From Candidatus Omnitrophota bacterium (lineage in GTDB: Bacteria > Omnitrophota > Gorgyraeia > B26-G9), in contig JAZDHZ010000007.1 of NCBI GenBank assembly GCA_043805415.1, positions 93,786 to 157,785 on the forward strand: 64,000 bases of DNA, in the 5' to 3' direction. Below, piece by piece: positions 581 through 37,919 of this stretch (position 1 is its first letter; each line of letters starts with the position of its first letter). Both the position numbers and the translations under genes were made by a program. A model generated the notes under the pieces. That model was not told the DNA's origin. It saw only the letters and a list, made by a program, of their open reading frames with translations, and did not search any database.

Positions 581-602
581 AATAATTCTCCAACTTTTTC
601 AG

Positions 603-721
603 TCAATAGCTAATAGTCAATGGCTTATAGTTAATAGTTATGAATTACAAGTTATTAGTTTCTAGCTCTTAGCCTGCGGCCGTTTAATTCTTACCATTAG
701 CTATGAGCTATAAGCTTTACT
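603..721. repeat. Degenerate tandem heptanucleotide array (about 17 units, consensus YTNNTAG / CTANTAG) in the intercistronic spacer
   Basis: Read directly in 7-nt register from 603: tcaatag ctaatag tcaatgg cttatag ttaatag ttatgaa ttacaag ttattag tttctag ctcttag cctgcgg ccgttta attctta ccattag ctatgag ctataag ctttact. It shares a near-identical 20-mer (agttatgaattaYaagttat) with 34836..34860. Confidence 0.75.
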
Positions 722-1729
722 CTATTCGCTATCAAAATGACAACTAACCACTAAATGACAATTCCTCCGGCAATTATTTATCTGTTCAATATGCTTATCC
801 ATCTGTTCCGACAGACAAATCCGCTCCAGATTCTGCTTATTTTTTATATTATCGATTATTCCCAGCATCTGGCATTTTGACACATTTCCCGCAGGATCAA
901 TATTCAAAACATTGGCCTGAGCCAAATTACATCTATTGCTTTTAATAAAACTCACGGCATCAAAGAAATATTTTTTAAAAATTTTTAACTGGCCAATGCT
1001 GTCCGCGATTTTATAGCCCTGAGATTTAAACTCAATCAGCTGATTGATTATTCGCTCGATTTCCGGCTTATCGTTTGGCCAAAGGCTCTGATATTCATCA
1101 GACTGAAACCAATACTGATCAGCAGCTTCACTATAAGAAAAAGGCTGGGCTATGGCCTGAAAATTAATATACGCTAAGCGCTTGTCATTTTCCACCCACC
1201 GCGTCAGCTCAATTATATCCAAAAGATTAATCCCGCTGATCACAGTATTAATCCCGATACAAATATCCGGATTACTCTCAGCAATATTTTCAATTGCCTG
1301 TAGAACATGTTCCAATGCCCCGGGTTTGCCTCTGAGAAAATCATGAGTTTTTGGATTTAAACTATCCAGCGAAAAACAAATAAACTTTAAGCCAGAGGCA
1401 GCGATATTCGCTGCGATTTGTTTACTTACATAAAACCCATTGGAAATTAGCTGAATTTGAAGCCCTAAACCAATACCGTGTTTTATTAAATCAAATATAC
1501 CAGCGCGCAGTAAAGGTTCCCCCGGTCCGGAAAAATTAACAATACACTTACCGCGGTCCACAAATTCACTGATTTGCTCTAAAACATTCTTCCATTGTTC
1601 GATGGAAAGAATATTATCCGCGGTTAAAGGACTATCCTGCCAAAATTTGCACATCTGGCATTGAAAATTGCACTCATAGGCAATGCCCAAATCGCAATAT
1701 GTTAATTTTATATTATCTATTTTTTCCAT
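722..1729 (-). CDS. Radical SAM / SPASM-like domain protein (paralog 1 of 4)
   Basis: CxxxCxxC cluster motif C-NFQ-C-QM-C near the N-terminus. Also the GGEPLL-type 'SGPGEPLL' and 'SLDSLNPKTHDFLRGKPGALEHVLQAIENI'. C-terminal Cys-rich region (CNL...C..C..CRRNC..SC) consistent with an auxiliary Fe-S (SPASM/twitch) domain. Confidence 0.85.
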   Translation of the reverse strand: MEKIDNIKLTYCDLGIAYECNFQCQMCKFWQDSPLTADNILSIEQWKNVLEQISEFVDRGKCIVNFSGPGEPLLRAGIFDLIKHGIGLGLQIQLISNGFYVSKQIAANIAASGLKFICFSLDSLNPKTHDFLRGKPGALEHVLQAIENIAESNPDICIGINTVISGINLLDIIELTRWVENDKRLAYINFQAIAQPFSYSEAADQYWFQSDEYQSLWPNDKPEIERIINQLIEFKSQGYKIADSIGQLKIFKKYFFDAVSFIKSNRCNLAQANVLNIDPAGNVSKCQMLGIIDNIKNKQNLERICLSEQMDKHIEQINNCRRNCHLVVSCHFDSE

Positions 1730-1760
1730 TTTCTATTTTCTTTATGTTCTTGTGTCTTGT

Positions 1761-1780
1761 GGCCACGTCACGCCGTGGCC
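1761..1780 (-). other. GC-rich intercistronic hairpin (7-bp stem, 6-nt loop)
   Basis: ggccacg(1761-1767) tcacgc cgtggcc(1774-1780) is a perfect inverted repeat lying between rSAM paralogs 2 and 1. No U-tract follows on the minus strand, so it is not called a terminator. Confidence 0.4.
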
Positions 1781-1803
1781 CTACTATTCGCTATACGCTG
1801 CTT

Positions 1804-2838
1804 TCAATCTTCTTCAAAAAAACAATTGATTAAAAAATGACAGTTTTTCTTACAAGCTTTTATATTCTGCCTGATTATTCCGGCTTTTTCCGAGTTCCAG
1901 ATTATATTTATATCCTCCATCAGACGGATATCTCCGATCGGCTCAAAAGCAAAACAATGATAAATCAGTCCGATGGAACTGATATGTATTGCTTTATCCA
2001 TATTACAGCTGGTTTTTTTCACAAAGCTATCTGGATCGGATAAATACTGTTTCATTGCCTTTAGCTGAGCAATACCGTTATTTATTTTATAGCCTTTAGC
2101 TTTTAATTCTATTAACTGATCAAACAATTCACTGACCCGCTGATTGTTTTTCGGCCATAAAAACCCGTATTTGCCCTTCCACCAGTGTTCTTCCGGCAAA
2201 GTATTATTCGGCTGCATCGGCACAGTCAAAGACACATCTTTGATTTTGGGATTATCATTTACCCATTGCACCAGCTCAATTATCCCAGAATAATTCTGTT
2301 CATAAATCACACTGATCAGGGCTATTTCAATATCCGGCGCGAAACAATGCAGATTATCAATCGCCCGCATCAGCTGCGCGTAAACTCCCTCCACTCCCCG
2401 CAAATAATCATGGGTCTGCCTGTCCATGCTATCCAATGATAGTTTTATAGTTTTTAAACCTGATGCTGCCAAACGTTCGGCAGTATTCTGATCAATTAAA
2501 TATCCATTGGAGACTAAATTTGTGCGCAGTCCGGCTTTATCCGCTGCCGCGATCAGAGCGTAAATATCTTTATGCAGCAAAGCCTCTCCTCCGCCGAAAT
2601 TCAGCACAAAATCCTTGCTCACTATTTTTTTTAACTGATTAAGTAAACTCGCATACTGGCTAAGCGTGGGGAAGCAATCAGCCGCGGTATTTTTAATAAA
2701 AATATCCGGCTGCCATTTATAGCACATCTTACATTTAAGCATGCACTGATCAGTAATCCCTAAAGAAGCGAATTCCGCTTTTTCGCTTATTCGCGCCTGT
2801 TTGATTTGTTCCGGGCTATTATTTAACATATTCTTCAC
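1804..2838 (-). CDS. Radical SAM / SPASM-like domain protein (paralog 2 of 4)
   Basis: CxxxCxxC = C-MLK-C-KM-C. Also 'GGGEALL', 'SLDSMDRQTHDYLRGVEGVY' and the C-terminal Cys cluster (CNMD...C...CKKNC..NC). The start overlaps the stop of the upstream paralog (2819..2838), suggesting translational coupling. Confidence 0.85.
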   Translation of the reverse strand: MKNMLNNSPEQIKQARISEKAEFASLGITDQCMLKCKMCYKWQPDIFIKNTAADCFPTLSQYASLLNQLKKIVSKDFVLNFGGGEALLHKDIYALIAAADKAGLRTNLVSNGYLIDQNTAERLAASGLKTIKLSLDSMDRQTHDYLRGVEGVYAQLMRAIDNLHCFAPDIEIALISVIYEQNYSGIIELVQWVNDNPKIKDVSLTVPMQPNNTLPEEHWWKGKYGFLWPKNNQRVSELFDQLIELKAKGYKINNGIAQLKAMKQYLSDPDSFVKKTSCNMDKAIHISSIGLIYHCFAFEPIGDIRLMEDINIIWNSEKAGIIRQNIKACKKNCHFLINCFFEED

Positions 2839-3841
2839 TTTCGTTAAAGTTGCAGTTAACCAATGACTGACAGTTTTTTCGGCACAATTTTATCTCAGCG
2901 CGCGCCTGTTCTGCGCTCTGACTAAACCAGAGCTCACTGATCCTATTGCTTTTTATATTTCCGATTGCCTGTTTATCAAAGCATATATGCACGTCTCCGG
3001 TAGGCGTAATATTCAGTGCCCGCAGATCAAGATGACAATGATTTTGCTTTATAAAATCATTGGGCTGGGAAAAATATTTACTGAATACGGCAAACTGATC
3101 TTCCGGGTTTTCCAGCACAAAATCCGCGCGCAAATCAGAGCTGTTTTTAAGTTTTGCCAATTGGCACATTGTCTGCCGCACACAATCCTGATCATTGGGC
3201 CATAAAAAAGCGTATTCTGGTTTTTCATACCATTTATCATCAAACTCAGTATTGAACGGCTGGGTAATCGCCTGATAGCCTATGCCGTGAATGCGTTTAT
3301 CTTTATTGGCCCAAAGCGCGACTTCCACCGCGTCTTTGATATTATAACCGGATATTGTGGTTGTAATATCAATAATTATCCGCGGCGCGTATTTAGCCAG
3401 GCTTGCTATAGCCGCCGCAACTTTGTCAAAACTGCCGGGCTTACCGCGGAGAAAATCATGCGTCTTGGGATTAGCTGAATCCAGAGATATGGTTATCTGG
3501 TTTAATCCGGCTTTGGCTAAATCCTCAGCCATCAGGTCATCGAGCAGATAAGCATTTGTTGCCAGCAAAGTCTCAAAACCCTGTTCACGCGCCCAGCTGA
3601 TCAGTTCAATGGTTTCTTTTCTCAGCAAAGGCTCGCCTCCGGCAAAATTAATCCGCGGTTTTTTGGCCAGGCACATCTGCCCCAGATCAGTTATAAACGC
3701 TTTCCACTGGGTAATTGAAGGCTCCCGCGGATCTCTATATTCCACGGAATTATGCCATTTAAAGCACATCTTACAGCGCATAAAACAGCTCTCAAGTAAA
3801 GCAATACAGCAATATGTCGGTAATTTTTTGTTTTCATTCAT
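2819..3841 (-). CDS. Radical SAM / SPASM-like domain protein (paralog 3 of 4)
   Basis: CxxxCxxC = C-FMR-C-KM-C. Also 'AGGEPLL', 'SLDSANPKTHDFLRGKPGSF' and the C-terminal Cys cluster (CHLD...C...CRKNC..NC). Confidence 0.85.
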   Translation of the reverse strand: MNENKKLPTYCCIALLESCFMRCKMCFKWHNSVEYRDPREPSITQWKAFITDLGQMCLAKKPRINFAGGEPLLRKETIELISWAREQGFETLLATNAYLLDDLMAEDLAKAGLNQITISLDSANPKTHDFLRGKPGSFDKVAAAIASLAKYAPRIIIDITTTISGYNIKDAVEVALWANKDKRIHGIGYQAITQPFNTEFDDKWYEKPEYAFLWPNDQDCVRQTMCQLAKLKNSSDLRADFVLENPEDQFAVFSKYFSQPNDFIKQNHCHLDLRALNITPTGDVHICFDKQAIGNIKSNRISELWFSQSAEQARAEIKLCRKNCQSLVNCNFNESEEYVK

Positions 3842-3865
3842 GGAACTTTGTATCCTTGCAACTAG

Positions 3866-3968
3866 CTTATTCCTCGGTCTAGAATCAATTATTTCTGCTC
3901 ATTCTCGCCTTACATCCTGTAAGGCTCCGAGGATAAATCTCTGATTTTGCCAGTCCTAACAAAATCAG
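3866..3968 (-). other. Structured intergenic element (three nested/adjacent stem-loops) between rSAM paralogs 4 and 3
   Basis: Outer imperfect stem ttattcctcgg(3867-3877)/ccgaggataa(3927-3936). Inner perfect hairpin gccttaca(3907-3914)-tcc-tgtaaggc(3918-3925). Adjacent hairpin ctgattttg(3941-3949)-10 nt-caaaatcag(3960-3968). Confidence 0.4.
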
Positions 3969-4084
3969 GCTTTAAACCCGCAAAATAATTATTCTAGCCC
4001 TTTTTACTTTATCCTTTTTACTTTTTACTTCCATCTGTGTTCATCGATATTTTTTATTAGTGTTTATCACAAAAGCTTCTGCTT

Positions 4085-5125
4085 TTACTTTTCAAATTTA
4101 CAGTTAAGCAGGAAATGACAATTTTCCCGGCAATTATTAATTTCTTTTCGCACTAAATCCGCTTTTACGCTCTGCCACATTTCCCGCACTGATTTTTCCC
4201 GCACATCTCCCAAGCATTGATGGCGGTAACACATAAACATATCTCCTACAGAGCTGATATGAATCGCGTGATCAATATTACAGCTGCTCTGCTTCACATA
4301 GGTATCAGGATCAAGCAAATAGGTTTTAAACGCCTGGATATGCTCAATGGGATTACTAATCTTATAGCCTTTTGTTTTCAGCTGAATAAGCTGATCTAAA
4401 ACCGCTTCCGCCTGTTTATAATCCTTAGGCCATAGTTCATTAAACGCCGGGTCTTTCCACCACTGGGTTTGAAGTTCCGTATTATTTGGCTGCATCAGCA
4501 CCATCAGATAAATCATATTGATTTTATTATTTTCCTGAACCCAGTTAACCAGATCAACCATTCCGCCCAGCGTGGGCTGCATAATAATCGAGCAAATACT
4601 GATCTGGATATTAGGCGCGTACGCGTGCACCAGATCAATCGCGTTCATAACCTTATCATAAACCCCGTCAACTCCGCGCAAATAATCATGGGTTTTTCTA
4701 TTAAGACTGTCCAAAGAAATATTGATATAATCAAGCCCGCTGTCGCGCATCTTCTCAACCATTGGTTTATCCACAATGAAGGCATTGGTGGCAATATTGG
4801 TTTTAAACCCCAGTTCATGACAGAACTTAACCAGATCAAACAGCCATGGCACTGTAGTGATTTCTCCTCCCCCGAAATTAATAATAAAATCATTGGGCGC
4901 GATTTTACGCAAAGAAAGAGCGCTCTGTTTCCAGTCGTCAAGCCCCAGCTGTCTGCGATCATCTTTAATGTAAATATCCTGTTTCCACTTTTGACACATT
5001 CTGCAGCCCAGCATGCAATCATCGCAAATACTAAAGCAGCAAAATGTCAGTTTCGGGATCTGGCTGATATTTTCCTTTCTATTAGTAATATTATTCATTA
5101 TTAATCTCCGTAATTGTTTTAACAT
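4085..5125 (-). CDS. Radical SAM / SPASM-like domain protein (paralog 4 of 4)
   Basis: CxxxCxxC = C-MLG-C-RM-C. Also 'SLDSLNRKTHDYLRGVDGVY' and the C-terminal Cys cluster (CNID...C...CRENC..NC). An alternative, better-supported start is the ATG at 5098 (MNNITN...) with GGAG 7 nt upstream. Confidence 0.85.
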   Translation of the reverse strand: MLKQLRRLIMNNITNRKENISQIPKLTFCCFSICDDCMLGCRMCQKWKQDIYIKDDRRQLGLDDWKQSALSLRKIAPNDFIINFGGGEITTVPWLFDLVKFCHELGFKTNIATNAFIVDKPMVEKMRDSGLDYINISLDSLNRKTHDYLRGVDGVYDKVMNAIDLVHAYAPNIQISICSIIMQPTLGGMVDLVNWVQENNKINMIYLMVLMQPNNTELQTQWWKDPAFNELWPKDYKQAEAVLDQLIQLKTKGYKISNPIEHIQAFKTYLLDPDTYVKQSSCNIDHAIHISSVGDMFMCYRHQCLGDVREKSVREMWQSVKADLVRKEINNCRENCHFLLNCKFEK

Positions 5126-5128
5126 TAA

Positions 5129-8100
5129 TCATTCCTTATCCTTATTAACTTTAATCTTTATCTTAAATTCAATTTTCTTATCCTGAACAGTAATATTTTT
5201 AGTTTTGCTTAATATTACCCGGCTATTATGATTCTCATCCGTATCTTTAATAATATTATCCCAATCAACACTGCACCAAGCTTCCCAGCTAATTTCCGGC
5301 AATTTACTGTTTTCCGCGAAAACTTTCATCTTATTCTTAGACTCAGCGACCTGACGCCAAACATCCGGATTGCTCCGCGGCGCGAACATCCCGAATTTCC
5401 GGGGATGTTCAGATACCTGCCAATTAACAAATTCTTTGTTCAGCATTATTCCCACGGCTATATCTTCAATCAGCGCAGGATCCAACTCGAAATAAATCCG
5501 CCATAATATTTCATTATCATCACCGTATTCAATTTCCTGAGTATGAGCGATTAAACAGTCTGCTTTGAATTTCAGCCGGATCATATCAGCGGTTTTATCA
5601 AGCTGTAATAATAACTGGGATGAATCAAACCAGTAATCTTTTGTTTTCATGGCTGTATACAGGCATAAGCCGTTAGTCAGCTCTTTGCGGTCATAGAACA
5701 ATCTTATTCTAGCCTGATCCAAGACAAGTTTAATTCTGCCTTTGTTCAGTTCCTTTAGCGGCAAAGTTTTTTTCTGAACACAATTATGGTTAAAATCATT
5801 AATTTTTTTCTCTTCCGAAGAAAGCAGAATATTTGCTTTAAATATTTCATGCTTACCGGGTTCAAGAACAAATGCCTGTTCCGCGAGCAAACGTTTAACT
5901 CCCAAAACAATAATCTCTTTGTTCGCTGGCTTAAATATCTGCAGCAGCCATTGCCCCATATCAGCTAAAGGAGCAAAAGCAATTTCCGCTGACTGTTCCG
6001 CGGCTAAATCAGTTTGTTTTAAAACAATATACCGGCTGCGGTTGTCGATAAGGTCTATGGCTTGAAATCCCTGGTCATGATCATTTAAAGCGATTACTCC
6101 CTTACCTAGTTCGCTCAGCCAATGCCGAAAAACTTTGGGTAAAAACATATTTATTGTCAGCGCGTATATTGCTGTTTGTTCTAAAACTTCCAGTTCCACG
6201 ATCCAGGAAATATATCCCGCTTTTTCCTGTAAATACCAGTTCTGGACAAGGAGGGGATTATTATATGTAATTTTAATAAAAAGCGTATGCGGATCCTGTT
6301 TTTTAATCTGCCAGTGCCCCTGGAAAGAATCAAATTCATCATAAGCGCTGACGATTACTGCCAAACCGCAGTCAGCGCTGATCAGCTTATTTTGATAATA
6401 AAGTTCTGTTTTTTGCTGCTTGGCTGTTAATCGGCAAGTCTCTGAACAAACTATAGAAAAATCTTGTTCGCAGTATTCATCTATTCCCTTTTGCCAGGAT
6501 TCCGGATCAACGATATCAAGTTCGGCGCTAAAAACCGGCTTCTGATCGTTTAATTCTCCGGGGTTTAATTTAGCCTGAAACTGCAGGTTCCTTGAACGAT
6601 TTGAATACTGCAGCAAGGGAGTATAAGCAAACTCGCTTAAACTATTATGCTTAAACAGCACGGCGCAGCCGGCATCATCAGTACAGGCTCCCAGCAAACA
6701 GCTGTTTAATTCTGTAAGGTCAATAAGCTTGATTTCCTGCGCGTCATTGCTGAACCTATTTTTTTCATACGCATTAATCCACTGCCGGAATCGCGGATTT
6801 AGTATGATTCCCACTTTATATTCAAAAGCATCATTTAATTCAAGCGGGTCTAAATATACATTCCAAATAAGGCTATGCTGTTTTAATTCAATCCGCCAAG
6901 ACTCTTTTACCTTGGGAAATTTTCTCTGAATGCTTACCAGCAGATAATTATCTTTTTTTTCAATTTTTTTGGCCACACCATGCGATTCATACCAGCGCTT
7001 ATTTAAAAATATTCCGCTGCTAAACCCGGCTAAAGCCGCCGTAATCTCGGTCTGTCCGAAAAATAAACGAATCCTGTCTTGGCCGCAATCAATACGCAGC
7101 GAGTCATTGCCCAGGAGATTAGCGGAATTAAATTTATCTCTTTGCTTGGCAATAAACCGCTGTTTTTCCTCAGACTGTTCAATAACCATCATTCGGCAAT
7201 TAATTGACGCGCTGTCCTGACTGCTGATCCGAATCCGCCGGGTACTTAGTTCCTGGCGGCAATTATACAGATCAATCCGGGCATTATCATCCGCCTCGGC
7301 AATAAAATGCTTATCCTGCCGCGCCTTACTGCTTAAGCCGACAAACCCGCATTTATTATGTTTTAAAATAACCTTTTCGTCAAACTCAATCGCGGGTAGA
7401 AAATCATTTTCCTGAGTTAATTCAAAATACGAATCATAATCATCAGTCAGATCAGCGTCGATCCAGATTAAGCTCTGGCTCTGTTCTAGGCTTTGCCCAT
7501 TTTTCAGCGACATTTTAAGCAATAATTCCTTGCCGGTTAAAATTAAATTTAATCTTACCTGAATCTGTTGCGTAAAAAATTCAGAATCAACCGCGAATTC
7601 CGCCTCACTGATCTTTGTGATTTTCCATTTTCCCTCAAATATATTATAAACATGATTTTGCTGTTTAAATCCGCAAACCAGTCCAAAGCCTTTGCTTATT
7701 TGTTCTGTTCCGTTAAAAAGCTGAAAACTTTTTTCTTCCAGCTTAAGCGTTAAACTATCTTTGCTGATGCGGATTTTTTCCTGCTGCTGCCTGAGCTTTT
7801 GTTCCAGCTGTTTTTTATCCAGCAGCTGAATCAGGGTTTTACATACCGCGCTTTGTTTCTGGTCTAAGAAAACATGCGTTTGGATAATATTTGCCGCGAA
7901 ACCTTCCTGGCGCTGGATCAAACCAAAACCGCGCTGCTGGTCGATATTAAAATTCGCCCAGACCGCGGGGATATCCGAATCAGCCGCGGACAATACCAGT
8001 AAAGCCTCCTTCTGGTCAGTACGATACAAATCCTGGCATTGCTCAGTGGTAAAATTTTCCGCGGCCCGCATAGGTTTTATTTTATCCGCGTCCAGATAAT

Positions 8101-9184
8101 GTTTATATTGATCATTAAACATAAAGCCGAAAACCGCTCTTTCCGCTTTTTGATCAGCCGTCAGGTTAATACTGCCGATACATTCAAATTCTCGCTCATT
8201 CTCCAGTTTAACCTGGATTTGCGCGCTTATCCGATTAGCCCATTGCCCCTGGACAAGAAAAAAATCTTTTTCGGTTTTAATTACCTGCCAATTCGCCTCC
8301 CAGGACATCAGCCATTTATCCCAGAGTTTTAAGCTTAAATACCCGCCAAAATCAGCGGTTATCGGTTTTCCGTCCCAAAGCAAGACAAGCCTTCCGCTAT
8401 TAAAAATAATGCTCAGTTTTTCCTGGTCAATGCAGGCAATAGCCTGTTTCTGCCCCACTGCCTGGACATAGCGGATAATTGATTTATGGATTGAGTCATC
8501 TTTTACTATCTGTCCGGTTTTCAGCAAAATACCCCGGGTGGCAATCCGGCTTAAAGAATCCAGATCATGGGAAACAATTACCACGGTCGCACCTTGTTTG
8601 TTCATTTCCATTATTCGCTTTAAACACTTAGCCTGAAACTCGGCATCGCCCACAGCCAGACTGTCATCAATCAGGAAAATATCCGGATTTACATGCACAG
8701 CCACGGAAAAGCCTAAACGCACGAGCATGCCCTGGGAATAAGTTTTTACCTGAGAGTCAATGAACTCATTTAGCCCGGAAAATTCAACGATTTCAGCAAA
8801 CAGGGCGTGAGTCTGTTTTTTACTCAAACCATAAAGCGCGGCATCAAGATAGATATTTTCTCTTCCGGTTAATTCCGGATGAAATCCCGCGCCTAAATCA
8901 AGCAGTCCCGCTACTTTGCCTTTAACATATATTTGCCCGCTGGAGGGCACCGTGATTTGGCTGATAATCCTCAGAATTGTTGTTTTGCCTGAAGCGTTTT
9001 CTCCGATAATCCCCAGAATCTCGCCTTTTTGCACTGAGAAACTAATATCTTTTAATGCCAAGACCTCGCGCTTGTTCCGGGCTTTTTTAAAAAAAGACAG
9101 AAAATTGCTGACTAAGAATTGTTTCCCTGAATTAAAACAATACTTTTTGCTGATGTTTTTCAGTTCAATAACTTTTTCTGACAT
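5129..9184 (-). CDS. Polysaccharide-exporter ABC ATPase (Wzt/TagH-like) fused to a ~1,100-aa C-terminal extension of five repeat modules
   Basis: Walker A GENASGKTT (aa 61-69; nt ~8978-9004), signature YSQGMLVRLGF, Walker B IFLIDDSLAVGD, H-loop VSHD. It lies next to an ABC-2 permease. From aa ~250 onward the protein is non-ATPase and internally repetitive. Confidence 0.85.
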   Translation of the reverse strand: MSEKVIELKNISKKYCFNSGKQFLVSNFLSFFKKARNKREVLALKDISFSVQKGEILGIIGENASGKTTILRIISQITVPSSGQIYVKGKVAGLLDLGAGFHPELTGRENIYLDAALYGLSKKQTHALFAEIVEFSGLNEFIDSQVKTYSQGMLVRLGFSVAVHVNPDIFLIDDSLAVGDAEFQAKCLKRIMEMNKQGATVVIVSHDLDSLSRIATRGILLKTGQIVKDDSIHKSIIRYVQAVGQKQAIACIDQEKLSIIFNSGRLVLLWDGKPITADFGGYLSLKLWDKWLMSWEANWQVIKTEKDFFLVQGQWANRISAQIQVKLENEREFECIGSINLTADQKAERAVFGFMFNDQYKHYLDADKIKPMRAAENFTTEQCQDLYRTDQKEALLVLSAADSDIPAVWANFNIDQQRGFGLIQRQEGFAANIIQTHVFLDQKQSAVCKTLIQLLDKKQLEQKLRQQQEKIRISKDSLTLKLEEKSFQLFNGTEQISKGFGLVCGFKQQNHVYNIFEGKWKITKISEAEFAVDSEFFTQQIQVRLNLILTGKELLLKMSLKNGQSLEQSQSLIWIDADLTDDYDSYFELTQENDFLPAIEFDEKVILKHNKCGFVGLSSKARQDKHFIAEADDNARIDLYNCRQELSTRRIRISSQDSASINCRMMVIEQSEEKQRFIAKQRDKFNSANLLGNDSLRIDCGQDRIRLFFGQTEITAALAGFSSGIFLNKRWYESHGVAKKIEKKDNYLLVSIQRKFPKVKESWRIELKQHSLIWNVYLDPLELNDAFEYKVGIILNPRFRQWINAYEKNRFSNDAQEIKLIDLTELNSCLLGACTDDAGCAVLFKHNSLSEFAYTPLLQYSNRSRNLQFQAKLNPGELNDQKPVFSAELDIVDPESWQKGIDEYCEQDFSIVCSETCRLTAKQQKTELYYQNKLISADCGLAVIVSAYDEFDSFQGHWQIKKQDPHTLFIKITYNNPLLVQNWYLQEKAGYISWIVELEVLEQTAIYALTINMFLPKVFRHWLSELGKGVIALNDHDQGFQAIDLIDNRSRYIVLKQTDLAAEQSAEIAFAPLADMGQWLLQIFKPANKEIIVLGVKRLLAEQAFVLEPGKHEIFKANILLSSEEKKINDFNHNCVQKKTLPLKELNKGRIKLVLDQARIRLFYDRKELTNGLCLYTAMKTKDYWFDSSQLLLQLDKTADMIRLKFKADCLIAHTQEIEYGDDNEILWRIYFELDPALIEDIAVGIMLNKEFVNWQVSEHPRKFGMFAPRSNPDVWRQVAESKNKMKVFAENSKLPEISWEAWCSVDWDNIIKDTDENHNSRVILSKTKNITVQDKKIEFKIKIKVNKDKE
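5132..8416 (-). other. Five tandem ~220-aa protein repeat modules within the ATPase extension
   Basis: Module anchors of type x-I/L-x-L-F/Y..G.E.IT...GL lie at aa ~257, 478, 696, 917 and 1149 (nt ~8416, 7753, 7099, 6436, 5740). Examples: LSIIFNSGRLVLLWDGKPIT; LTLKLEEKSFQLFNGTEQIS; LRIDCGQDRIRLFFGQTEIT; CRLTAKQQKTELYYQNKLIS; IKLVLDQARIRLFYDRKELT. Each is followed by W..W.(I/V) and L.W.(I/V) motifs. Confidence 0.6.
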
Positions 9185-9208
9185 TATTTTTTCCTTAACC
9201 TGCTCATT

Positions 9209-9988
9209 TTAAGTAAAATCAGCGAAAAATTTCTTATTATTCCTAAATAAAACAATGCCCAATATCCCAAAGCCAAGGCTTATGCCCAGCATCCAGCCAA
9301 GGGCAAAAAAACCGGGAACTTTAGCATAAAGCAAAATATCCCGGTAAGCGTTTATATACAAGCTCAAGGGATTAAGGTAAAAAAATCCTCGGATATTTTC
9401 CGGAACCAAAGACAAAGGATAAAAAATCGGAGTAGCATAAAACCATACCAGCATAATCAGCTCAATAATATATTTCACATCCCGGTAAAAAGTATGCAAA
9501 GCCGCCACAGACAGGCAAAGCCCAACAATAAATACAGTCTGAAGAATGATTATCAGCGGCAGATAAACCCACGGCCAGCTGGGGAAAATTCTAAAATAAG
9601 CTAAAAACGCGAATAGGAGAAACTGGGAAATAAGAAAATTAAACAGATTCGCGCAAACAACGGAAAGCGGAATCACTTCATAAGGAAAATAAGCTTTTTT
9701 AATCAGACTGGCATTATCGACTATTGAAGTCGCGGCCGCGGTTAAAGAAAAATTCAGAAAAAACCAGGGCAAAAGCGCGCTCAGAAGAAATACCGGATAA
9801 TTGGCAATCTGGATCTTCATAATAAAAGTAAACACCAGGCTGAAAACCAGCATTAAAAGCAAAGGATTGAGCAAAGACCATAGCCAGCCTAAGACCGCTG
9901 ACTTATACTTTATTTTTATTTCTTTTTTAGTCAGGCTGATAATCAAATTGCGGTAAGCATAAATGCTTTTTATATAAGCGTAACTCAT
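9209..9988 (-). CDS. ABC-2 type polysaccharide-exporter permease (Wzm/TagG-like)
   Basis: 259 aa with about six hydrophobic segments. The N-terminal 'YRNLIISLTKKEIKIKYKSAVLGWLWSLLNPL' is typical of ABC-2 permeases. It sits immediately upstream of the cognate ATPase. Confidence 0.8.
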   Translation of the reverse strand: MSYAYIKSIYAYRNLIISLTKKEIKIKYKSAVLGWLWSLLNPLLLMLVFSLVFTFIMKIQIANYPVFLLSALLPWFFLNFSLTAAATSIVDNASLIKKAYFPYEVIPLSVVCANLFNFLISQFLLFAFLAYFRIFPSWPWVYLPLIIILQTVFIVGLCLSVAALHTFYRDVKYIIELIMLVWFYATPIFYPLSLVPENIRGFFYLNPLSLYINAYRDILLYAKVPGFFALGWMLGISLGFGILGIVLFRNNKKFFADFT

Positions 9989-11277
9989 AGTTTATTTATC
10001 TCCTGAGCAATAACCTTTCCATCAATAATCACATCTTCCATTGACATGTATTTCCATTGCCCAAACCGTCCCACGGGAAAGATATTATTCGCTTTTAAAA
10101 AATCATTCAGCGCCTGCATGCTCAGACGATAATTATGATCATATACAACATAGGCATATTTAATATTATGCGCGTGGGAAACTAAAATAAGATCATCCTT
10201 GGTTAAAATCCCAGCGCTGATCAAATCATTTTGGATTATTTTATTTATATCTTTTTTGGGCAAAGGTTTATTTTCGGAATATGATACTTCCGCGTATAAA
10301 GAACTTTTATTCGCGGGAGCAACATTCTGCGAAAAATTCATCGGAAACCCCAGCCGAAAAAAAACAAACTTATCTTCCGGATAATAAATCCAGTGTTTAT
10401 CACTTATCCGCGGCCGGTCAATGCCCAGATTAAGATTATATATTGAGATATATCTAAGCTGGGAAAACGCGGTTTTTACTTTTTCCGGCATCTTATTAAC
10501 AATTAGTTTCTTTAATTCAATCATCGGCAAAGAACAAATAAGCTGCGTAAACTTTTCGGTTCGGCCATTATTAAATTTTACTGTTTTCTGCTCGAGATCT
10601 ATTGCCTGCGTCTCATGTTCAGTATATATGTTTTTGACCTGGTTAGCAAAAGCTTTTGCCAGCTGATCAATTCCCCCGGTTTGCGGATACCAGAATTCAC
10701 TATTATAACCCAAGGCTTTGGTTTTTAAAGTAAATGCTCCATCCAGGACTGTTTTTATTTTTACCTGAGGAACATAATTCACTGTCCAATCAGCTATAAG
10801 CTCTTGCGGCGGCACAGTCCAAAATTTATAGTTATAGGGATACATGAAATATTTTGTTATCCCCTTGCCAAACCTATCTAACATCCACTCGTAAAGATTT
10901 TGCTGGTCATTATCTTTTGTTTTCAATGAGGCTTTGAGCATTCCGAGAATGCATTTTTTTACTATTTGCAAAGGCAAGCCAAAAGTATTTGCCTGAAAAG
11001 GATATTTCGTATAGATATCATGAGAGTAAATCCAGGCATTACGCTTATGGCTAGATAATAAATCCGGCAAAAGTTTATTAATTAATTGTTTAACATAATT
11101 GGTTTTAAAATGCAGAAGATGCCCATCATAATCAAAAATAAAACCATTCACCAAATCAGTGCGGGCAAGACCGCCGACCTGGTCTTCTTTTTCAAATATC
11201 TTAACTTCATCCTGAATATGAAAAGCAGTGCTTAATCCAGCAAGCCCAGCACCTAAAATTATAATTTTCTTACTCAT
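9985..11277 (-). CDS. FAD/NAD(P)-binding oxidoreductase, UDP-galactopyranose-mutase / amine-oxidase-like
   Basis: N-terminal Rossmann motif KIIILGAGLAGLSTA (GxGxxG) followed by 'IFEKEDQVGG'. The C-terminal 'GRFGQWKYMSMEDVI' resembles the Glf-family C-terminus. 4-nt ATGA overlaps with both neighbours. The exact activity is not determinable. Confidence 0.6.
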   Translation of the reverse strand: MSKKIIILGAGLAGLSTAFHIQDEVKIFEKEDQVGGLARTDLVNGFIFDYDGHLLHFKTNYVKQLINKLLPDLLSSHKRNAWIYSHDIYTKYPFQANTFGLPLQIVKKCILGMLKASLKTKDNDQQNLYEWMLDRFGKGITKYFMYPYNYKFWTVPPQELIADWTVNYVPQVKIKTVLDGAFTLKTKALGYNSEFWYPQTGGIDQLAKAFANQVKNIYTEHETQAIDLEQKTVKFNNGRTEKFTQLICSLPMIELKKLIVNKMPEKVKTAFSQLRYISIYNLNLGIDRPRISDKHWIYYPEDKFVFFRLGFPMNFSQNVAPANKSSLYAEVSYSENKPLPKKDINKIIQNDLISAGILTKDDLILVSHAHNIKYAYVVYDHNYRLSMQALNDFLKANNIFPVGRFGQWKYMSMEDVIIDGKVIAQEINKL

Positions 11278-12625: not shown

Positions 12626-13009
12626 TTATGACGACAGCTCTAATCCTTCGAGAAAATCATCAACAATTTTTTTATTCTGGTCATTTTTCCACCAGGAAAA
12701 GCTTATCCCTGATCTATATTTATCAGCATCCTGGTAAGTCCATTCCACTTTGCCGAAAACTCTTATTGGGCTAATAGTTTCATTTAGTAAAATATCTATA
12801 CTTAGACGTGTGCCAACAGCCATTGTTTCTTTTGAATAAATTCCTGCGCCGAAAAGAGTAAAATCCCGCAAAAAGCATTCTGTTCCGTTCCAATAGCGAA
12901 ACCATGCCTGCGGATCTAAGGGCCTAACCTGTACAGCTGATTTATCAGCTAATTTTCTTATATTCGCTCTCTGTTCCTTTGCGATAATATCCATATTTTT
13001 TTGCTCCAA
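12626..13009 (-). CDS. Stand-alone PilZ domain protein (putative c-di-GMP receptor)
   Basis: RxxxR (R-ANI-R) followed by a D-x-S/T-x-x-G-type motif (DFTLFGAG). About 55% identical by eye to the PilZ gene at 37540..37899 (shared RPLDPQ.WFR.WN, IRVFGKVEW, SFSWWK). Confidence 0.75.
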   Translation of the reverse strand: MEQKNMDIIAKEQRANIRKLADKSAVQVRPLDPQAWFRYWNGTECFLRDFTLFGAGIYSKETMAVGTRLSIDILLNETISPIRVFGKVEWTYQDADKYRSGISFSWWKNDQNKKIVDDFLEGLELSS

Positions 13010-16278: not shown

Positions 16279-18231
16279 CTAAAATATATTATACTCCTCT
16301 TTGGCAAAAATTGCAAAATTAGTGCCCGCGGCTGAGATTGAGCCGCTATCCGGCGTATACCAGCCATGTCCGGTATCAACAGCGCTATTACTGGCATAAG
16401 GCAAGCCTCCGCTGCCTTTGCTTAAACCAAAGGCTGAACGCACAAGCATCAGTTTTTCCAGCTCGCCCAGATAATAATCCGCTCTGCGCTCATATTTATC
16501 CGCCTTAGCCGGATCTGATTGCTGTTTATAAAAACTGCTGATCTGGCGAAAAGCGACAACCATTTGCGCTGTCCATTCTACTGAAATTGTTCCGCTTCTG
16601 CTGATGCTTGAAGGCGCGCAAAAATCAAAACCGCTTATGTTTATTTTTTTGCCTGAAATATTTTTAACATTTATAGTGGTCTTGCAATTTTCCTCCGCGC
16701 AGTCGATCAGATCATCAATTGTAACTCCCATATCTTCCAGTCCTTCCGGGCCAAAAGCCATAATGCTCAGGGCAATCGTATCAGTCGCGATCATCCGATC
16801 ATCAGTACCGCGATTAAATCTTTTTAATGTTTTATTATAAGCGGTATCTTTAAGCCAGCCATGTATTTTCCGCGCGGCCAGAGCATAGCGCTGATCATGC
16901 TCGGTTTTAAATAGGGTTTTAAAAAATATATACGCGGCAATATTCTGCTCTGTACCGGCCCAACTAACCTGAGGCCCTCCCGGCAAAGATCCATCACTAT
17001 TTTTGTTTTGCAAATCAAGCAGCCAATCAGCTATTTCATAAACCAGTTTGCTATAGGTATTTTTACCAGTAGCTTGTTCATAACGCATAATTGCCAGGCC
17101 TAAATAGATAACTGGTCCGGTGTGCACAATATATTCTGAAACATTGCCGGTAATTACATCATAGGCATTAGCAAACCCGCCTTGAACTTTTTTAGCGCGG
17201 TTATTAAAAAAATCAAAAATAAGTTCCGCCTTTTCAAACTGTTTAAAATTAATAAAATTAAACGCGCTCAGAGCCTGGTCATAAGTAAATCCGACATCGA
17301 TTAAAGCATGATCATTATCATAACTTACAATAAGCCCGGTCTTACTGCTTTGCGAAGCAATAAGCCATTGCCGCATTAAATCCAGAGTCTTATCTTCTAA
17401 AACAACTCTTTTATCACTGATTTTCTCAAGCTTGGTCTCCAAAACAGCCTGGGTATCAGTGTATTTATTAAGCTTAGTCTGCATCTTTTGTTTTTCCGCG
17501 AATAAGTCAGCGAGCTGTTTTTTTAGCTTGCTTTGATCTACCAGCAATTTTTCAACTTCTTCAGTATTCTGCTCGCCGGCTTGCTGATTTTTAAGCGTCT
17601 CGATCTTTGCTAATTTTTCCTTCATCTGATTTTCCGCTTTTGAACTATTATTCAGCATATTGGCTAAAATAAACTTTTCCGCTTTAATTTTATCCAGTTC
17701 TTGGTTTACCATAAACTGTTCATCATTTAACTGTCCCAGATGCTGAACAAGTAAACTATTATCGCGGGTAAGCCGGATATTGTCATAAGCTAAAAACCCG
17801 CAAAATAAGACTAATAGCAAACCAGCCAAAGCAATCATCCGCGGAATAGCCAGCATAATCTTAGCAAAACGGATTATGCGTTTTTGTTCAACTTGATCAA
17901 TCGCTTCATACGCTAATCCGAGCATATAACTTTGGGGATAGGGAGCGGCGGTTTTTTTTGACCAGGCAACACGCGCGATGGCTTTAATTGGGTTTTGGGT
18001 TAAGGGAATATTTAAAAATACTTGAAGTTTGTTTTTGTTGTTTTTCAGTAATTCAGTATGCTCCTGGCTTAAACTGTTTATTTCCACGCATACACCTGAA
18101 AAACTTACGTCCCGGGTAAACCCCTGCATTAAATCGCTGATCGGCTTATTTTGAGCATCAACTATTTTTAATTCAACCGGAAATATCTTATTGAGCCGAA
18201 CGTATTTTCTTTGATCATTTATCATAGGCAA
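16279..18231 (-). CDS. PilZ - TM - coiled coil - alpha/alpha-toroid-like domain protein (C-terminal domain paralogous to giant ORF aa ~2605-3040)
   Basis: The N-terminus has RxxxR (R-KYV-R) and DVSFSGV (DxSxxG), followed by a TM segment (LAIPRMIALAGLLLVLFCGFLAY) and a Q/K/E-rich coiled coil. The C-terminal ~350 aa align motif-by-motif with the giant ORF: FTYDQAL/FTYDLAL, LQNKNSDGSLPGGP/LQDEDGGIRQGP, TEQNIAAY/TEENINAF, ATDTIALSIMAFGPE/ATDVNALAVIVLGPE. Confidence 0.7.
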   Translation of the reverse strand: MPMINDQRKYVRLNKIFPVELKIVDAQNKPISDLMQGFTRDVSFSGVCVEINSLSQEHTELLKNNKNKLQVFLNIPLTQNPIKAIARVAWSKKTAAPYPQSYMLGLAYEAIDQVEQKRIIRFAKIMLAIPRMIALAGLLLVLFCGFLAYDNIRLTRDNSLLVQHLGQLNDEQFMVNQELDKIKAEKFILANMLNNSSKAENQMKEKLAKIETLKNQQAGEQNTEEVEKLLVDQSKLKKQLADLFAEKQKMQTKLNKYTDTQAVLETKLEKISDKRVVLEDKTLDLMRQWLIASQSSKTGLIVSYDNDHALIDVGFTYDQALSAFNFINFKQFEKAELIFDFFNNRAKKVQGGFANAYDVITGNVSEYIVHTGPVIYLGLAIMRYEQATGKNTYSKLVYEIADWLLDLQNKNSDGSLPGGPQVSWAGTEQNIAAYIFFKTLFKTEHDQRYALAARKIHGWLKDTAYNKTLKRFNRGTDDRMIATDTIALSIMAFGPEGLEDMGVTIDDLIDCAEENCKTTINVKNISGKKINISGFDFCAPSSISRSGTISVEWTAQMVVAFRQISSFYKQQSDPAKADKYERRADYYLGELEKLMLVRSAFGLSKGSGGLPYASNSAVDTGHGWYTPDSGSISAAGTNFAIFAKEEYNIF

Positions 18232-34715: not shown

Positions 34716-34773
34716 AACTTTTCTCCTCGTTAAGAATTAAAGCTCTTTATAAAGATTACAGAAAATGCGATAA

Positions 34774-34802
34774 AGTATACCATGAGTTTTGGGATAATGC
34801 AA
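34774..34802 (-). promoter_or_regulatory. Candidate extended -10 promoter for the 1191-aa gene
   Basis: The minus strand reads TTGCAT (34802-34797), a 17-nt spacer ending in TGG, then TATACT (34779-34774), about 60 nt upstream of the ATG at 34715. The -35 is weak. Confidence 0.3.
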
Positions 34803-34835
34803 ATGTGTAACGATTTGATAATAAACGGTTTAAGG

Positions 34836-34938
34836 AGTTATGAATTATAAGTTATGGGTTGGCGAGTTTGCCAGTTAGGAAAGCAGCGAGTAGTGTTTAG
34901 GACTTAGCGTAAAGTGATCCATAGTCAATAGCTAATAG
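34836..34938. repeat. Member of the dispersed 7-bp-periodic repeat family
   Basis: gttatga attataa gttatgg gttggcg ... tccatag(34918-34924) tcaatag ctaatag(34932-34938). The first 20 nt are nearly identical to 634..658. Confidence 0.6.
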
Positions 34939-35037
34939 AAAAATGGAAGATGGGAAAAACTAAAAAAGTTTATAAATAAAACCAGAACTCGTGAACGCGC
35001 TAACGCGCAAACTGGTTAACACTATTGGTTAACACTA

Positions 35038-35151
35038 CTAATTTACATTTACCAATTTACCCAGATACTCTCCCACTAATTGATTATCTTTTACTTCTTC
35101 ATACCCTTTGATTATTAATATTAAATCCCGAACAATCTGCCCATTAGCCAT
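35038..35151 (-). pseudogene. Decayed 3' remnant of a third PilZ paralog (37-codon ORF)
   Basis: Manual translation of the minus strand from the ATG at 35151 gives MANGQIVRDLILIIKGYEEVKDNQLVGEYLGKLVNVN*. The last ~17 aa match the PilZ C-terminus ...DQDKQLVNEYLGKLLNIN* (37540..). The nucleotide match is visible too: ctaatttacatttaccaatttacccagata vs ttaatttatatttaataatttacccagata. Confidence 0.55.
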
Positions 35152-35159: not shown

Positions 35160-36059
35160 TTATTCTGTTACCAGTTCAAACCTAGTCCCACTTTCCATAG
35201 CGTTATTAATTCTGGTAAGAGCCTTATCTAGACTGAAATTATCCCGCTCATTGAGCGACAAAACATCAAATAGCTCTGCTTCAATGCGTGAATTCATATC
35301 TTTTATTTCTTCATCTGATCTGCCAAGATTTTTTCTGTATTTAACTAAATCTGTATCGGCATCATCCTCCTGAAGTTTCTTTTTAAACAGCGTCATTACT
35401 TCTTTATCTGCTAAATCAAACTTATTGCGAAGAATAAAGTCAATATCGTAGAAATCGCGCGGAGCTATAATTTGACGTGTCGCGCCTGCGCGTAACTTTT
35501 CTGAAACAATCTCTTTTAGTGACATACACTGAATCTCGCCACTAGCAAACAATGGCTCATCAGTAAAAGAGTGTTTGAATTTATGCTGTACCGCTCTTTT
35601 TTCAGTGTCTAAAATAGGGTTAAATTTCAAACCTACTTCAAATTTAATTGTCTGCTCAGAAAGTGTTGTAACAGAATCATATACGATATGGTACACATAC
35701 TGCTTTGATTCATTTCTCCCGGGATTACCGGCATCATCAATCCTCATGCTAAATTGCTTCACAAACCTCTCAATACCATTCTTAACCGGCTGGATGCATT
35801 TACGCCTCTCACCTCGTGTAGCTTGATACCGCGGAAGCATCATACTAAAATCAAGATCTTCACTCAAACGATAATATGAATAATATATCTTATTGAGACA
35901 GGTTCCTCCTTTAAAAATAAGATTACCTGACAATTCATGTATACGAGAAAGCAGTAATGTTAAATAATAATCTTTTTCTATCAGCGGCGCATAAAATCCC
36001 GTTAATGACGCGATACGATCAATAAGAATAAAAAATTGTTCTTTATCTTCGTGTATCAT
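35160..36059 (-). CDS. abiEii: AbiEii/AbiGii-family nucleotidyltransferase toxin (type IV toxin-antitoxin)
   Basis: Family motif 'FKGGTCLNKIYYSYYRLSEDLDF' in a 299-aa protein, immediately downstream of and overlapping an AbiEi-like gene. Confidence 0.8.
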   Translation of the reverse strand: MIHEDKEQFFILIDRIASLTGFYAPLIEKDYYLTLLLSRIHELSGNLIFKGGTCLNKIYYSYYRLSEDLDFSMMLPRYQATRGERRKCIQPVKNGIERFVKQFSMRIDDAGNPGRNESKQYVYHIVYDSVTTLSEQTIKFEVGLKFNPILDTEKRAVQHKFKHSFTDEPLFASGEIQCMSLKEIVSEKLRAGATRQIIAPRDFYDIDFILRNKFDLADKEVMTLFKKKLQEDDADTDLVKYRKNLGRSDEEIKDMNSRIEAELFDVLSLNERDNFSLDKALTRINNAMESGTRFELVTE

Positions 36060-36856
36060 TAATAATAATTCTCCATTTTTTATTTAACGTACCTTTTCTT
36101 GATTCTGACAATGAGGCAATCGACGTTTCTTTGACACTTTTTACAAGTGATCTCAATAATAGATCACTAATTCCACATTTTTCCAATATGTACCCCATAT
36201 ACTTACGAGTCTTTATATTGGGAAACCGAGTCGCATAGTCAATAAGCGTTTTTATGTCACATTTTTTTTCTGTTACAAACCTCTCTACTATCTGGCCTGC
36301 GGCAAAAAAACCGCCTACCGGCTTATTAAAATAAATAAGATCAACCAATGTTTTTTCTTTTGAACTAATGCAAACATTAACGCCTCTTATAATTTTTTTT
36401 TTCAATCCCATACATTTGAGCCCGAGACACATTTATAAACTTAAACAGAATTCCCGCAATCTTTTTTTCCTTGCTCAAGCTCGTATTAAGAACATACACT
36501 TTCTGGAATTGCTGATCTGTAAAGCTGTAATAGTTAAACATTGTAGAATATCCAATATAGTAATCCCCCTTAGGAAAATAAATTGATGGTATTATAAACT
36601 CACTAATACGGCGTCCTGTAGGAACTGATTCAAGAGGAACAAATATATATATGCCGCTTTTAATAGGAATTAAAATATTTTTTGTTTTTAACCTGAATAC
36701 AAGTTGTCTTCTATAAGAAAAATCAGCAGGCAAAAAAGCATCCAACTCTTTTGCTGTTACGATCTCTTTTTTTTCATAGACAAGCCGCGCGATAAGTTCT
36801 GTCTCTGTTTGACTAAGCGAACTAAATGTTTTTTTATTTGGCATATGTACCCCCAC
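36043..36856 (-). pseudogene. abiEi: AbiEi-family antitoxin, split into two ORFs by a +1 nt expansion in an A10 homopolymer
   Basis: ORFs 36377..36856 and 36043..36432 together are the length of a typical AbiEi. They join at plus T-run 36393-36402. Removing one A gives the continuous ...AQMYGIEKKIIRGVNVCISSKEKTLVDL.... This could be a real frameshift or a homopolymer sequencing error. Confidence 0.65.
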
Positions 36857-36914
36857 AGTTACATTGAACTAACGATAATACATTAATATAGTAACATATA
36901 AGACTTATAAGTCA

Positions 36915-36947
36915 ATGGAAAACTGTATTACATGGAAAACTGTATTA
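36915..36947 (-). promoter_or_regulatory. Tandem 16-bp direct repeat (17-bp period) upstream of abiEi; candidate operator overlapping a TTGACT -35 box
   Basis: atggaaaactgtatta occurs at 36915-36930 and again at 36932-36947. On the minus strand the proximal copy abuts TTGACT. The repeat lies about 60-90 nt upstream of the ATG at 36856. Confidence 0.4.
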
Positions 36948-37333: not shown

Positions 37334-37368
37334 CTCATGGCTAATAGCTGATAGCTAATGGTCAATGG
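37334..37368. repeat. Heptanucleotide array (5 units) of the CTANTAG family
   Basis: ctcatgg ctaatag ctgatag ctaatgg tcaatgg. The surrounding ~37060-37440 also shows weaker 7-nt periodicity (e.g. tattgcg tatcgcg tattgag tatagcg). Confidence 0.7.
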
Positions 37369-37513: not shown

Positions 37514-37539
37514 AAAGTATTTTATACTAAATATTATAA

Positions 37540-37899: not shown

Positions 37900-37919
37900 T
37901 GTGATTACTCCTTTATCAG

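Follow-up and report, generated by a model that had tools for sequence, protein, structure and literature searches.

Heptanucleotide repeat arrays, frequently in inverted pairs, in the intercistronic spacers of a Candidatus Omnitrophota genome

Short tandemly repeated repetitive (STRR) heptanucleotides with the units CCCCAGT, TTGGTCA and CAACAGT are found in Calothrix and Nostoc, and the enterobacterial intercistronic palindromes known as REP and BIME have a fixed length of 20-40 nucleotides (nt), are GC-rich and are linked to RAYT transposases. Here we describe arrays of AT-rich heptamers, mostly variants of YYNATRG, in the spacers of a 64-kb stretch of DNA (hereafter the window) from a Candidatus Omnitrophota bacterium (contig JAZDHZ010000007.1), whose nearest relatives are Omnitrophota metagenome-assembled genomes. 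One glycosyltransferase, the PilZ protein and a radical-SAM protein of the window are 100% identical to entries that carry a Candidatus Omnitrophota annotation and lie on a 182-kb metagenome-assembled contig. Among the long simple repeats of bacteria, heptamers show the strongest over-representation, which has been put down to polymerase slippage (Mrazek 2007, cited in PMC4679880 and PMC4692102); they are intergenic, vary between close relatives and have no known function (PMC4692102, PMC4679880). Among the species-specific families, MacGregor (2015, PMC4679880) described TAACTGA from Beggiatoaceae and from some Cyanobacteria and Bacteroidetes, and Rehm et al. (2015, PMC4692102) the units GGGAATC of Xanthomonas and GGGGAYT of Nostoc. 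Inverted heptamer pairs with stem-loop potential occur in Xanthomonas (PMC4692102), and simple repeats, heptamers included, mediate phase variation in pathogens (reviewed in PMC4679880, PMC4692102).

We consider it likely that the arrays of the window are slippage-driven heptanucleotide microsatellites of the STRR, TAACTGA or GGGAATC kind in one Candidatus Omnitrophota lineage, with a generic and dispensable role as hairpins, if any. The kind is already known; the unit family and the phylum are new. In the literature searched, no description of Omnitrophota heptamer repeats or of CTGATAG-type arrays was found. The broader novelty implied by the original prediction, which had been made from the letters of this stretch, does not hold, since intergenic heptamer repeats, inverted pairs among them, have been described (PMC4679880, PMC4692102) and CTNATRG arrays are widespread in public genomes.

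Heptamer arrays in the spacers of the window

All genes of the window lie on the minus strand, and spacers make up about 5% of its length. When 17 spacers were pooled (3131 nt) and compared with 500 dinucleotide-preserving shuffles, self-matching at lag 7 reached 0.357 against 0.289 ± 0.008 in the shuffles (z = 8.2, 0/500), with a further excess at lag 14 (z = 5.5) and z near 0 at lags 5, 6 and 9. A sliding count in which a peak was defined by at least 21 of 35 lag-7 matches gave eight peaks in the 64 kb, all eight of them non-coding, and CTNATRG occurs at 4.15 per kb in spacers as against 0.28 per kb in genes, a 15-fold difference (p = 5e-10). Independently, Tandem Repeats Finder reported a period of 7 or 14 at 601-640, 37340-37359, 37388-37418, 37913-37961 and 37968-37997, where the match of 66-84% marks the arrays as imperfect; registers of 13-20 consecutive units were seen. 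A dispersed period-7 family in spacers had been proposed for this DNA; its enrichment over shuffled controls and its confinement to spacers were both borne out. The four runs first named (603-721, 34836-34938, 37334-37368 and 37920-37996) are all present with the 7-nt register kept, and the weaker sites were recovered at 1696-1766, 3989-4048 and 37318-37443.

The unit itself differs from the one first proposed. Just 3 of the 30 units in register are CTANTAG, the strict palindrome. The proposed consensus CT(A/T/C/G)AT(A/G)G stood in part, as 15 units fit CTNATRG and the broader YYNATRG fits 23. YYNATRG units join head to tail through the palindrome AGCT, so that the unit is nearly self-complementary, being quasi-palindromic around this junction. 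Other heptamer types share the same spacers, namely GTATNGC / TAGCGNN (37388-37422), TTATRAN (34830-34858) and CTTTTTA (3989-4048).

Two intercistronic spacers have the same layout in the mRNA: stop - [YYNATRG]n - loop - [CYATNAG]n - CTGA(A/T-rich)GGAG - ATG. Their arrays end 2-12 nt upstream of a clear GGAG Shine-Dalgarno (SD) sequence, and both orientations are present. The array between the giant open reading frame (ORF), which is at least 8657 amino acids (aa) long, and a PilZ gene fills the spacer from the giant-ORF stop to the PilZ SD (37900-38024). Its plus-strand half-array CCTATGG CTGATAG CTTATGG CTAATGG CTCATAG CTTATAG (37920-37961) forms the 3' arm in the mRNA and lies 2 nt before the PilZ SD region; the loop TTTTTTA (37962-37968) is exactly one unit long, with similar one-unit A/T loops in the stretches L103, L132 and L139; and the inverted half-array on the minus strand, which reads TCGATAG TCAATAG CTAATAG TCAATAG in the mRNA and CTATTGA CTATTAG CTATTGA CTATCGA on the plus strand, lies 28 nt past the giant-ORF stop (37969-37996). 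The predicted pair of inverted half-arrays around TTTTTTA is thus real, with six units, the loop and four inverted units. An intrinsic terminator with a 13-bp stem followed by a T run lies after the PilZ gene (37481-37513, minus strand), and the terminator scan gave no such site within 37900-38024, which indicates that the giant ORF, the array spacer and the PilZ gene form one transcription unit.

The second such spacer (581-735, minus strand) separates a radical-SAM gene from the next gene and keeps an unbroken 7-nt register from 735 to 595, or about 20 units. The radical-SAM gene ends with TAG at 724-722, and the array fills the gap between this stop and the next ribosome-binding site, a GGAG at 591-588 that serves a minus-strand gene running off the left window edge. 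As the ATG of that gene (580-578) lies to the left of the array, the array at 603-721 is not at an operon end. Its plus-strand half-array TCAATAG CTAATAG TCAATGG CTTATAG TTAATAG TTATGAA (603-644) is of the YYNATRG type and makes the 3' half, of the CYATNAG type, in the mRNA; the inverted half-array reads AGTAAAG CTTATAG CTCATAG CTAATGG TAAGAAT on the mRNA strand (687-721, minus strand).

The remaining arrays are located in two long spacers that flank an AbiEii cassette. The run at 34836-34938 consists of two short arrays at its ends, with a middle that is decayed yet in register: one reads CCCATAA CTTATAA TTCATAA CTCCTTA on the mRNA strand (34830-34858, minus strand; register print) and the other ATAG TCAATAG CTAATAG on the plus strand (34918-34941; inverted-repeat search). 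The spacer downstream of the PilZ terminator carries CTCATGG CTAATAG CTGATAG CTAATGG TCAATGG (37334-37368, plus strand), and the second heptamer type of the TAGCGNN / GCGTANN family reads GTATTGC GTATCGC GTATTGA GTATAGC GTAAAGC (37388-37422, plus strand). Distant arrays match one another as inverted repeats, 693-715 being 91% complementary to 37340-37362 and 34918-34938 being 95% complementary to 37976-37996 over 21 nt. Weak period-7 runs of the ATTTTCT type (1696-1766) and of the CTTTTTA type (3989-4048) span a radical-SAM gene start with its upstream spacer and lie within the 3842-4084 spacer, respectively.

Several other readings of the arrays were considered and rejected. Each of the four spacers does have stops in every frame of either strand, as had been noted, but a function as an all-frame stop insulator was discarded: any AT-rich spacer of such length has stops, and array-less orthologs need only 10-25 nt. 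Unit size, the lack of unique spacers and stops in every frame rule out CRISPR, tRNA and small-ORF readings. The arrays are not intrinsic terminators either, the terminator scan finding only the site after PilZ (37513-37481). Promoter-like matches were no commoner than in shuffles, and Rfam 15 gave no match in the whole window at gathering thresholds, with only chance-level matches to the spacers in E-value mode.

Relatives, other genomes and described systems

Orthologous spacers of relatives were taken from metagenomes and public assemblies, and labels such as L126 and L269 denote individual stretches. Between the giant ORF and the PilZ gene, the window has a spacer of 125 nt with YYNATRG arrays. 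L126 (PilZ 82% identical) has about 170 nt with other YYNATRG units, in the order CTAATGG CTCATGG CTGATAG CTCATAG, about 80 nt, CCATCAG CCATGAG CTATTAG CTATGAG and then the SD. In L269/L270 (82%) the 162-nt spacer is built from a different heptamer, TAGCGNN / CGCTANN, with the arms CTATTAG CGGATAG CGTTTAG CGAGCAG ... CTATACG CTAATCG CTAAACG CTGTACG, despite a giant-ORF tail AATGCGATTTAAAAGCAG in L269 that is identical to that of the window; the family that builds these hairpin arms is the one found at 37388-37422. A local inverted pair is present in L129 (58%) and five NNTACGA units immediately before the SD in L130 (61%), and array-less spacers measure 50 nt in L271, 25 nt in L272/L273 and 10 nt in L127. 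A single fixed motif, as first proposed, is therefore not maintained, since relatives carry other heptamers in the orthologous place. The array at 34830-34858 has an ortholog in L269 that is longer by exactly two units (+14 nt). In the MraY-side syntenic region of the relatives L122 and L124, arrays were not found.

The radical-SAM spacer (581-735) contains the same element as its orthologs in L278/L279 (protein 68% identical), with conserved flanks and differences of +7, +7 and +14 nt. Its 5' array has three units in the window and four in L278/L279, and in the 3' array L278 has an extra TTCATAA and the window an extra CTATTAG CTATTGA (14 nt). Besides these whole-unit differences, one 5-nt difference between orthologs is also present. 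In L275/L276 the orthologous spacer is of equal length and holds the GC-rich stem-loops GGCCACGGCGTGACGTGGCC and GGGCGCAGGCAAGCAGCGCCC instead. All orthologs of this spacer, array-less ones included, conserve the ribosome-binding region GCTATTGACTG...GGAG...ATG, and the last array unit, CTATTGA, is part of it, so that this unit looks like the seed of array growth; the first units, TTGATAG CGAATAG, coincide with the final codons of the gene upstream.

The spacer signal at lag 7 is likewise distributed by lineage. Match and background are.343/.288 in the window,.396/.290 in L126 and.447/.269 in L269, and the signal is also seen in L129, L278 and L130; it is absent from the sister species L275 (.296/.290), from L276/L127 (.277/.285) and from L272. 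Some relatives have arrays with unit-wise changes, and others have GC hairpins or no array. These aligned spacers show that whole units are gained and lost between orthologs, and that in relatives other units or GC hairpins take the place of the arrays, or nothing does.

Beyond the clade, a scan for (CTNATRG)x4 over one genome per species, in which about 0.1 stretches are expected by chance, found arrays in at least 120 genome stretches. Among the matches listed were Cyanobacteria, Bacteroidota, Gemmatimonadota, Chloroflexota, Planctomycetota, Acidobacteriota, Victivallales, Patescibacteria, Vibrio and others, and CTGATAG was the commonest unit in every G+C class, genomes of 65-73% G+C included. 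Most units are CTGATAG or CTGATGG, which are compositionally odd in genomes of 65-73% G+C. Among the matches listed, 118 of 125 arrays are intergenic, and by crude ORF calls they tend to adjoin stops, lying at most 30 nt from a stop in 23/51 and 13/43 cases as against 6/43 for starts. A strand rule was rejected, as ++ arrangements relative to genes numbered 24 and -- arrangements 23 in these 125 arrays. In viruses, 69 stretches carry CTNATRG x4, and three permuted control units gave 42, 17 and 10, in GC-rich viral contigs too. Many-unit heptamer arrays are therefore common and CTNATRG is only moderately favoured, so the idea of a uniquely special unit was dropped. Inverted pairs number 14 in the genome matches listed and 9 in the viral matches, several with a one-unit A/T loop like that of the window. 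A composite element is present in at least five copies in a phage-like contig (L145, IMG/VR contig 3300021255_003533, G+C 0.60, 3876-10525); it has the form (AGCTGTT)n - GGCGCGCC-containing core - GCAAGTAACTT - (AGCTAAT)n, in which a GC-rich palindrome is enclosed by heptamer arrays of opposite orientation.

The arrays of the window behave as long simple sequence repeats with a heptanucleotide unit. Copies run head to tail in Tandem Repeats Finder output and register prints; they exceed what composition predicts (lag-7 z = 8.2, lag-14 z = 5.5); the unit is not a multiple of 3 and lies mainly between genes (8/8 window peaks and the 118/125 arrays listed elsewhere); and relatives differ by whole units (+7, +7 and +14 against L278, +14 against L269). 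The likeness to cyanobacterial STRR sequences that the original prediction drew is apt, both being many short dispersed intergenic arrays of a 7-nt tandem unit, with several unit types coexisting in one genome and function unknown. The differences are that CCCCAGT, TTGGTCA and CAACAGT are without any tandem copy in the window, that the host belongs to Omnitrophota and is not a (heterocystous) cyanobacterium, and that the window arrays are short, degenerate and frequently in inverted pairs.

With the TAACTGA system the window shares intergenic arrays of 2-6 units, often just 5' of translation starts, a patchy distribution over the phylogeny and a turnover that is strain-specific and proceeds in 7-nt steps (PMC4679880). 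In the register of the window TAACTGA reads CTGATAA, one mismatch from CTGATAG, and a single CTGATAA abuts the PilZ SD. However, TAACTGA itself occurs in 10 single and no tandem copies in the window, whose arrays are mixtures of YYNATRG variants, whereas the described system consists of direct repeats of TAACTGA itself, with related heptamers rarely repeated (PMC4679880). Those repeats lie in forward orientation a few nt from the start, usually with no canonical SD (PMC4679880); here canonical SDs, which are rare beside the repeats of the orange Guaymas Beggiatoa (BOGUAY) genome (PMC4679880), accompany the arrays, both orientations occur, and inverted pairs, a single exception in the TAACTGA system, are the rule. 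The GGGAATC and GGGGAYT repeats are likewise heterogeneous and intergenic, mostly of about four units, and vary at the same locus between close species; some form inverted pairs able to fold into stem-loops, and polymerase slippage has been invoked for them (PMC4692102). They are G-rich and quadruplex-capable, in contrast to the AT-rich, self-complementary unit of the window with its duplex hairpins, and neither GGGAATC nor GGGGAYT is tandem in the window. REP and BIME elements resemble the arrays as imperfect hairpins in intercistronic or 3' operon regions with many dispersed copies and a generic effect on mRNA stability, and sister genomes have GC-rich hairpins in the very spacers that hold arrays here. 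The window arrays are, however, AT-rich and variable in length, with 7-nt units gained and lost, whereas REPs are neither tandem 7-nt repeats nor unit-changing; no transposase was found in the window. Nor do the arrays have the discrete boundaries of a MITE, as orthologs differ by internal units with fixed flanks.

Predicted folding and competing explanations

Fold energies were compared with 200 dinucleotide shuffles. The giant-ORF/PilZ spacer of the window folds better than shuffles (z = -2.2, 4/200), as the original prediction of a hairpin there had it, and the predicted fold leaves the SD unpaired. The same spacer gave z = -3.6 (0/200) in L126, z = -2.5 (2/200) in L269, where the stem is made from a different unit type, and z = -1.1 in L129, with a local hairpin; in these four the arrays come as inverted halves that pair. 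The radical-SAM spacer of L275, with its GC-rich hairpins, gave z = -3.4. As a general property of the arrays the hairpin did not hold up, two of the three folded array regions of the window being no better than shuffles. Predicted hairpins thus arise repeatedly where half-arrays are inverted, most clearly at the giant-ORF/PilZ spacer, and are not formed by every array.

The comparison of orthologs shows that the arrays arise in the only DNA that tightly packed operons can spare, between the stop codon and the conserved ribosome-binding region. Whole 7-nt units are gained and lost, as replication slippage, which we infer to be the engine, predicts, and the unit drifts by point mutation with the register kept. 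The nearly self-complementary unit favours inverted pairs, and the arrays tend to form two inverted half-arrays, in some cases around a loop of just one unit; the halves may pair into a long imperfect hairpin just 5' of a free SD, in polycistronic mRNA or in single-stranded DNA. Such a hairpin, if active at all, is probably a generic and dispensable intercistronic stem-loop for mRNA stability or processing, like REP/BIME, and probably no sequence-specific signal. Either template switching at quasi-palindromes or selection could account for the inverted pairs; the former may keep them alike, so that selection would be unneeded.

Several observations weigh against this explanation. The material examined is one 64-kb window and fragments of relatives' genomes. 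Folding was no better than in shuffles at 590-745 (z = -0.8), at 34800-34960 (z = +0.3) and in the radical-SAM spacer of L278 (z = +0.4), although the halves do pair in the minimum-energy structures of 590-745 and L278. Because [YYNATRG]n-loop-[CYATNAG]n is the same on both strands, orientation cannot tell an RNA role from a DNA role. Independent assemblies of the same strains (L269/L270, L278/L279 and L272/L273) have identical spacers and thus give no sign of ongoing hypermutability, turnover being seen between species only. Finally, three separate sites carry the 14-nt dimer TCAATAGCTAATAG (603-616, 34925 and, inverted, 37976-37989), a distribution for which purely local slippage is insufficient and which hints at dispersal or gene conversion.

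The arrays could alternatively be copies or remnants of a small MITE-like or REP-like mobile element spread by a transposase, with the period of 7 incidental. Distant loci share segments (601-643 with 37949-37991, 43 nt, 77%; 34918-34938 with 37976-37996), AGTTATGAATTAYAAGTTAT is present at both 636 and 34837, and the viral contig L145 carries its composite element of inverted arrays around a GC-rich core in at least five copies. We nevertheless hold this origin to be quite unlikely, as the shared segments consist only of a small vocabulary of units, no fixed-length terminal inverted repeats, target-site duplications or nearby transposase were found within the window, and orthologous arrays differ by internal units between fixed flanks and not by having or lacking the element as a whole. 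Another suggestion is that AGCT-joined inverted arrays of CTGATAG, CTNATRG and their relatives, often with a one-unit A/T loop, are a specific and widespread hairpin element and no neutral microsatellites; such arrays are present in Omnitrophota, Cyanobacteria, Bacteroidota, Gemmatimonadota, Chloroflexota, Planctomycetota and phages, genomes of 65-73% G+C among them. The hairpin would then be read by a conserved factor or spread by phages and would have a defined role in operon mRNA processing or genome rearrangement; we regard this as unlikely. The arrays might also be sequence-specific sites for a periodic RNA- or DNA-binding protein, either one that regulates the downstream cistron post-transcriptionally, a role proposed for TAACTGA, or a ring protein reading NAG triplets. 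HutP of Bacillus is a ring protein of this sort, with NAG triplets every 7 nt. The arrays indeed present NAG every 7 nt in either orientation, the unit beside the PilZ SD, CTGATAA, is a register-shifted TAACTGA, and in two operons the arrays end a few nt upstream of the SD, as most TAACTGA repeats are placed (PMC4679880). Binding of this kind is nonetheless improbable: orthologous spacers have unrelated heptamers (TAGCGNN in L269, NNTACGA in L130) or no array (L127, L272), sister genomes are without the period-7 signal, one spacer holds both orientations, and the 125 arrays from many phyla have no orientation bias relative to genes (++ 24, -- 23). The analysis yielded no candidate for the binding protein.

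Genes near the arrays have envelope-related products (glycosyltransferases, PilZ and the product of a giant ORF of surface type), and heptamer and other simple repeats drive phase variation in pathogens (PMC4679880, PMC4692102), which would suit contingency loci whose gain and loss of units switches or tunes neighbouring surface-polysaccharide and cyclic di-GMP (PilZ) genes. We find this very unlikely, since arrays with matches of 66-84% are imperfect, which lowers slippage rates, since they lie between stop and SD, where a change of 7 nt shifts neither a reading frame nor promoter spacing, and since spacers are identical in three pairs of independent assemblies. Chance low complexity carries a negligible probability. 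The spacers are AT-rich, and runs of two to three units could arise by chance, but the excess at lags 7 and 14 over dinucleotide shuffles, with neighbouring lags at background, refutes this reading; registers of 13-20 consecutive units and the homologous arrays of relatives also speak against it.

Gene neighbourhood, other repeats and implications

The giant ORF extends from 38025 to 63998, where it runs off the window, and its last 2000 residues match only a glycosyltransferase, weakly. It is followed by the small PilZ gene (37540-37899), and the same cluster contains a paralogous PilZ gene (12626-13009, 72% identical in nt) and a protein of 650 aa that carries a PilZ domain at its N terminus (16279-18231). 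Four tandem paralogous radical-SAM/SPASM genes occupy 722-5125, and their 3' ends all share a conserved 55-nt segment (family D1). By synteny with L275, much larger radical-SAM/B12-binding genes come next beyond the left window edge.

The 3' end of the PilZ gene recurs 2.5 kb downstream as a truncated, 75% identical duplicate (35037-35110 against 37539-37601), 35111-35143 matches 37005-37037 as a further pair, and 34716-35036, after the duplicate, is orthologous to the DNA directly 3' of PilZ in L126 and L269. From the duplicate and this orthology, the AbiEii toxin cassette (35160-36856) together with the spacer 36857-37539 looks like an insertion, and this putative insertion has array-bearing DNA on its flanks. 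The long spacers that hold heptamer arrays also contain two perfect two-copy tandem repeats of other periods, TGGTTAACACTAT x2 (13 nt) and ATGGAAAACTGTATTAC x2 (17 nt), at 35013-35037 and 36915-36947. Downstream of PilZ, amid otherwise fast-changing spacer DNA, a block TCCTAGCGCAGCGATCGTC is conserved in three lineages (window 37270-37300, minus strand; L126 at about 10560-10580; L269 at about 10460-10480) and may serve as a regulatory site or belong to a small RNA. A GC-rich hairpin with the sequence GGCCACG-N6-CGTGGCC is dispersed and REP-like in look, and sits in radical-SAM-operon intercistronic spacers of sister genomes without heptamer arrays (L275 9939-9958, 11014-11033 and 20599-20618; L276 11029-11048); the window keeps one copy (1761-1780) and remnants (GGCCGCAGGC near 670).

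In summary, no new kind of system is revealed by these arrays. They place Omnitrophota, an uncultured phylum whose very small cells have giant genes, among the few bacteria with spacers colonised by heptanucleotide repeats. Two intercistronic spacers can be traced across relatives, from 10 nt without an array to inverted arrays of 125-170 nt and to GC-rich hairpins. They would be useful for the study of how bacterial microsatellites are seeded and turn over, of whether intercistronic hairpins are selected or merely tolerated, and of where short-read assemblies of heptamer-rich genomes are prone to break.

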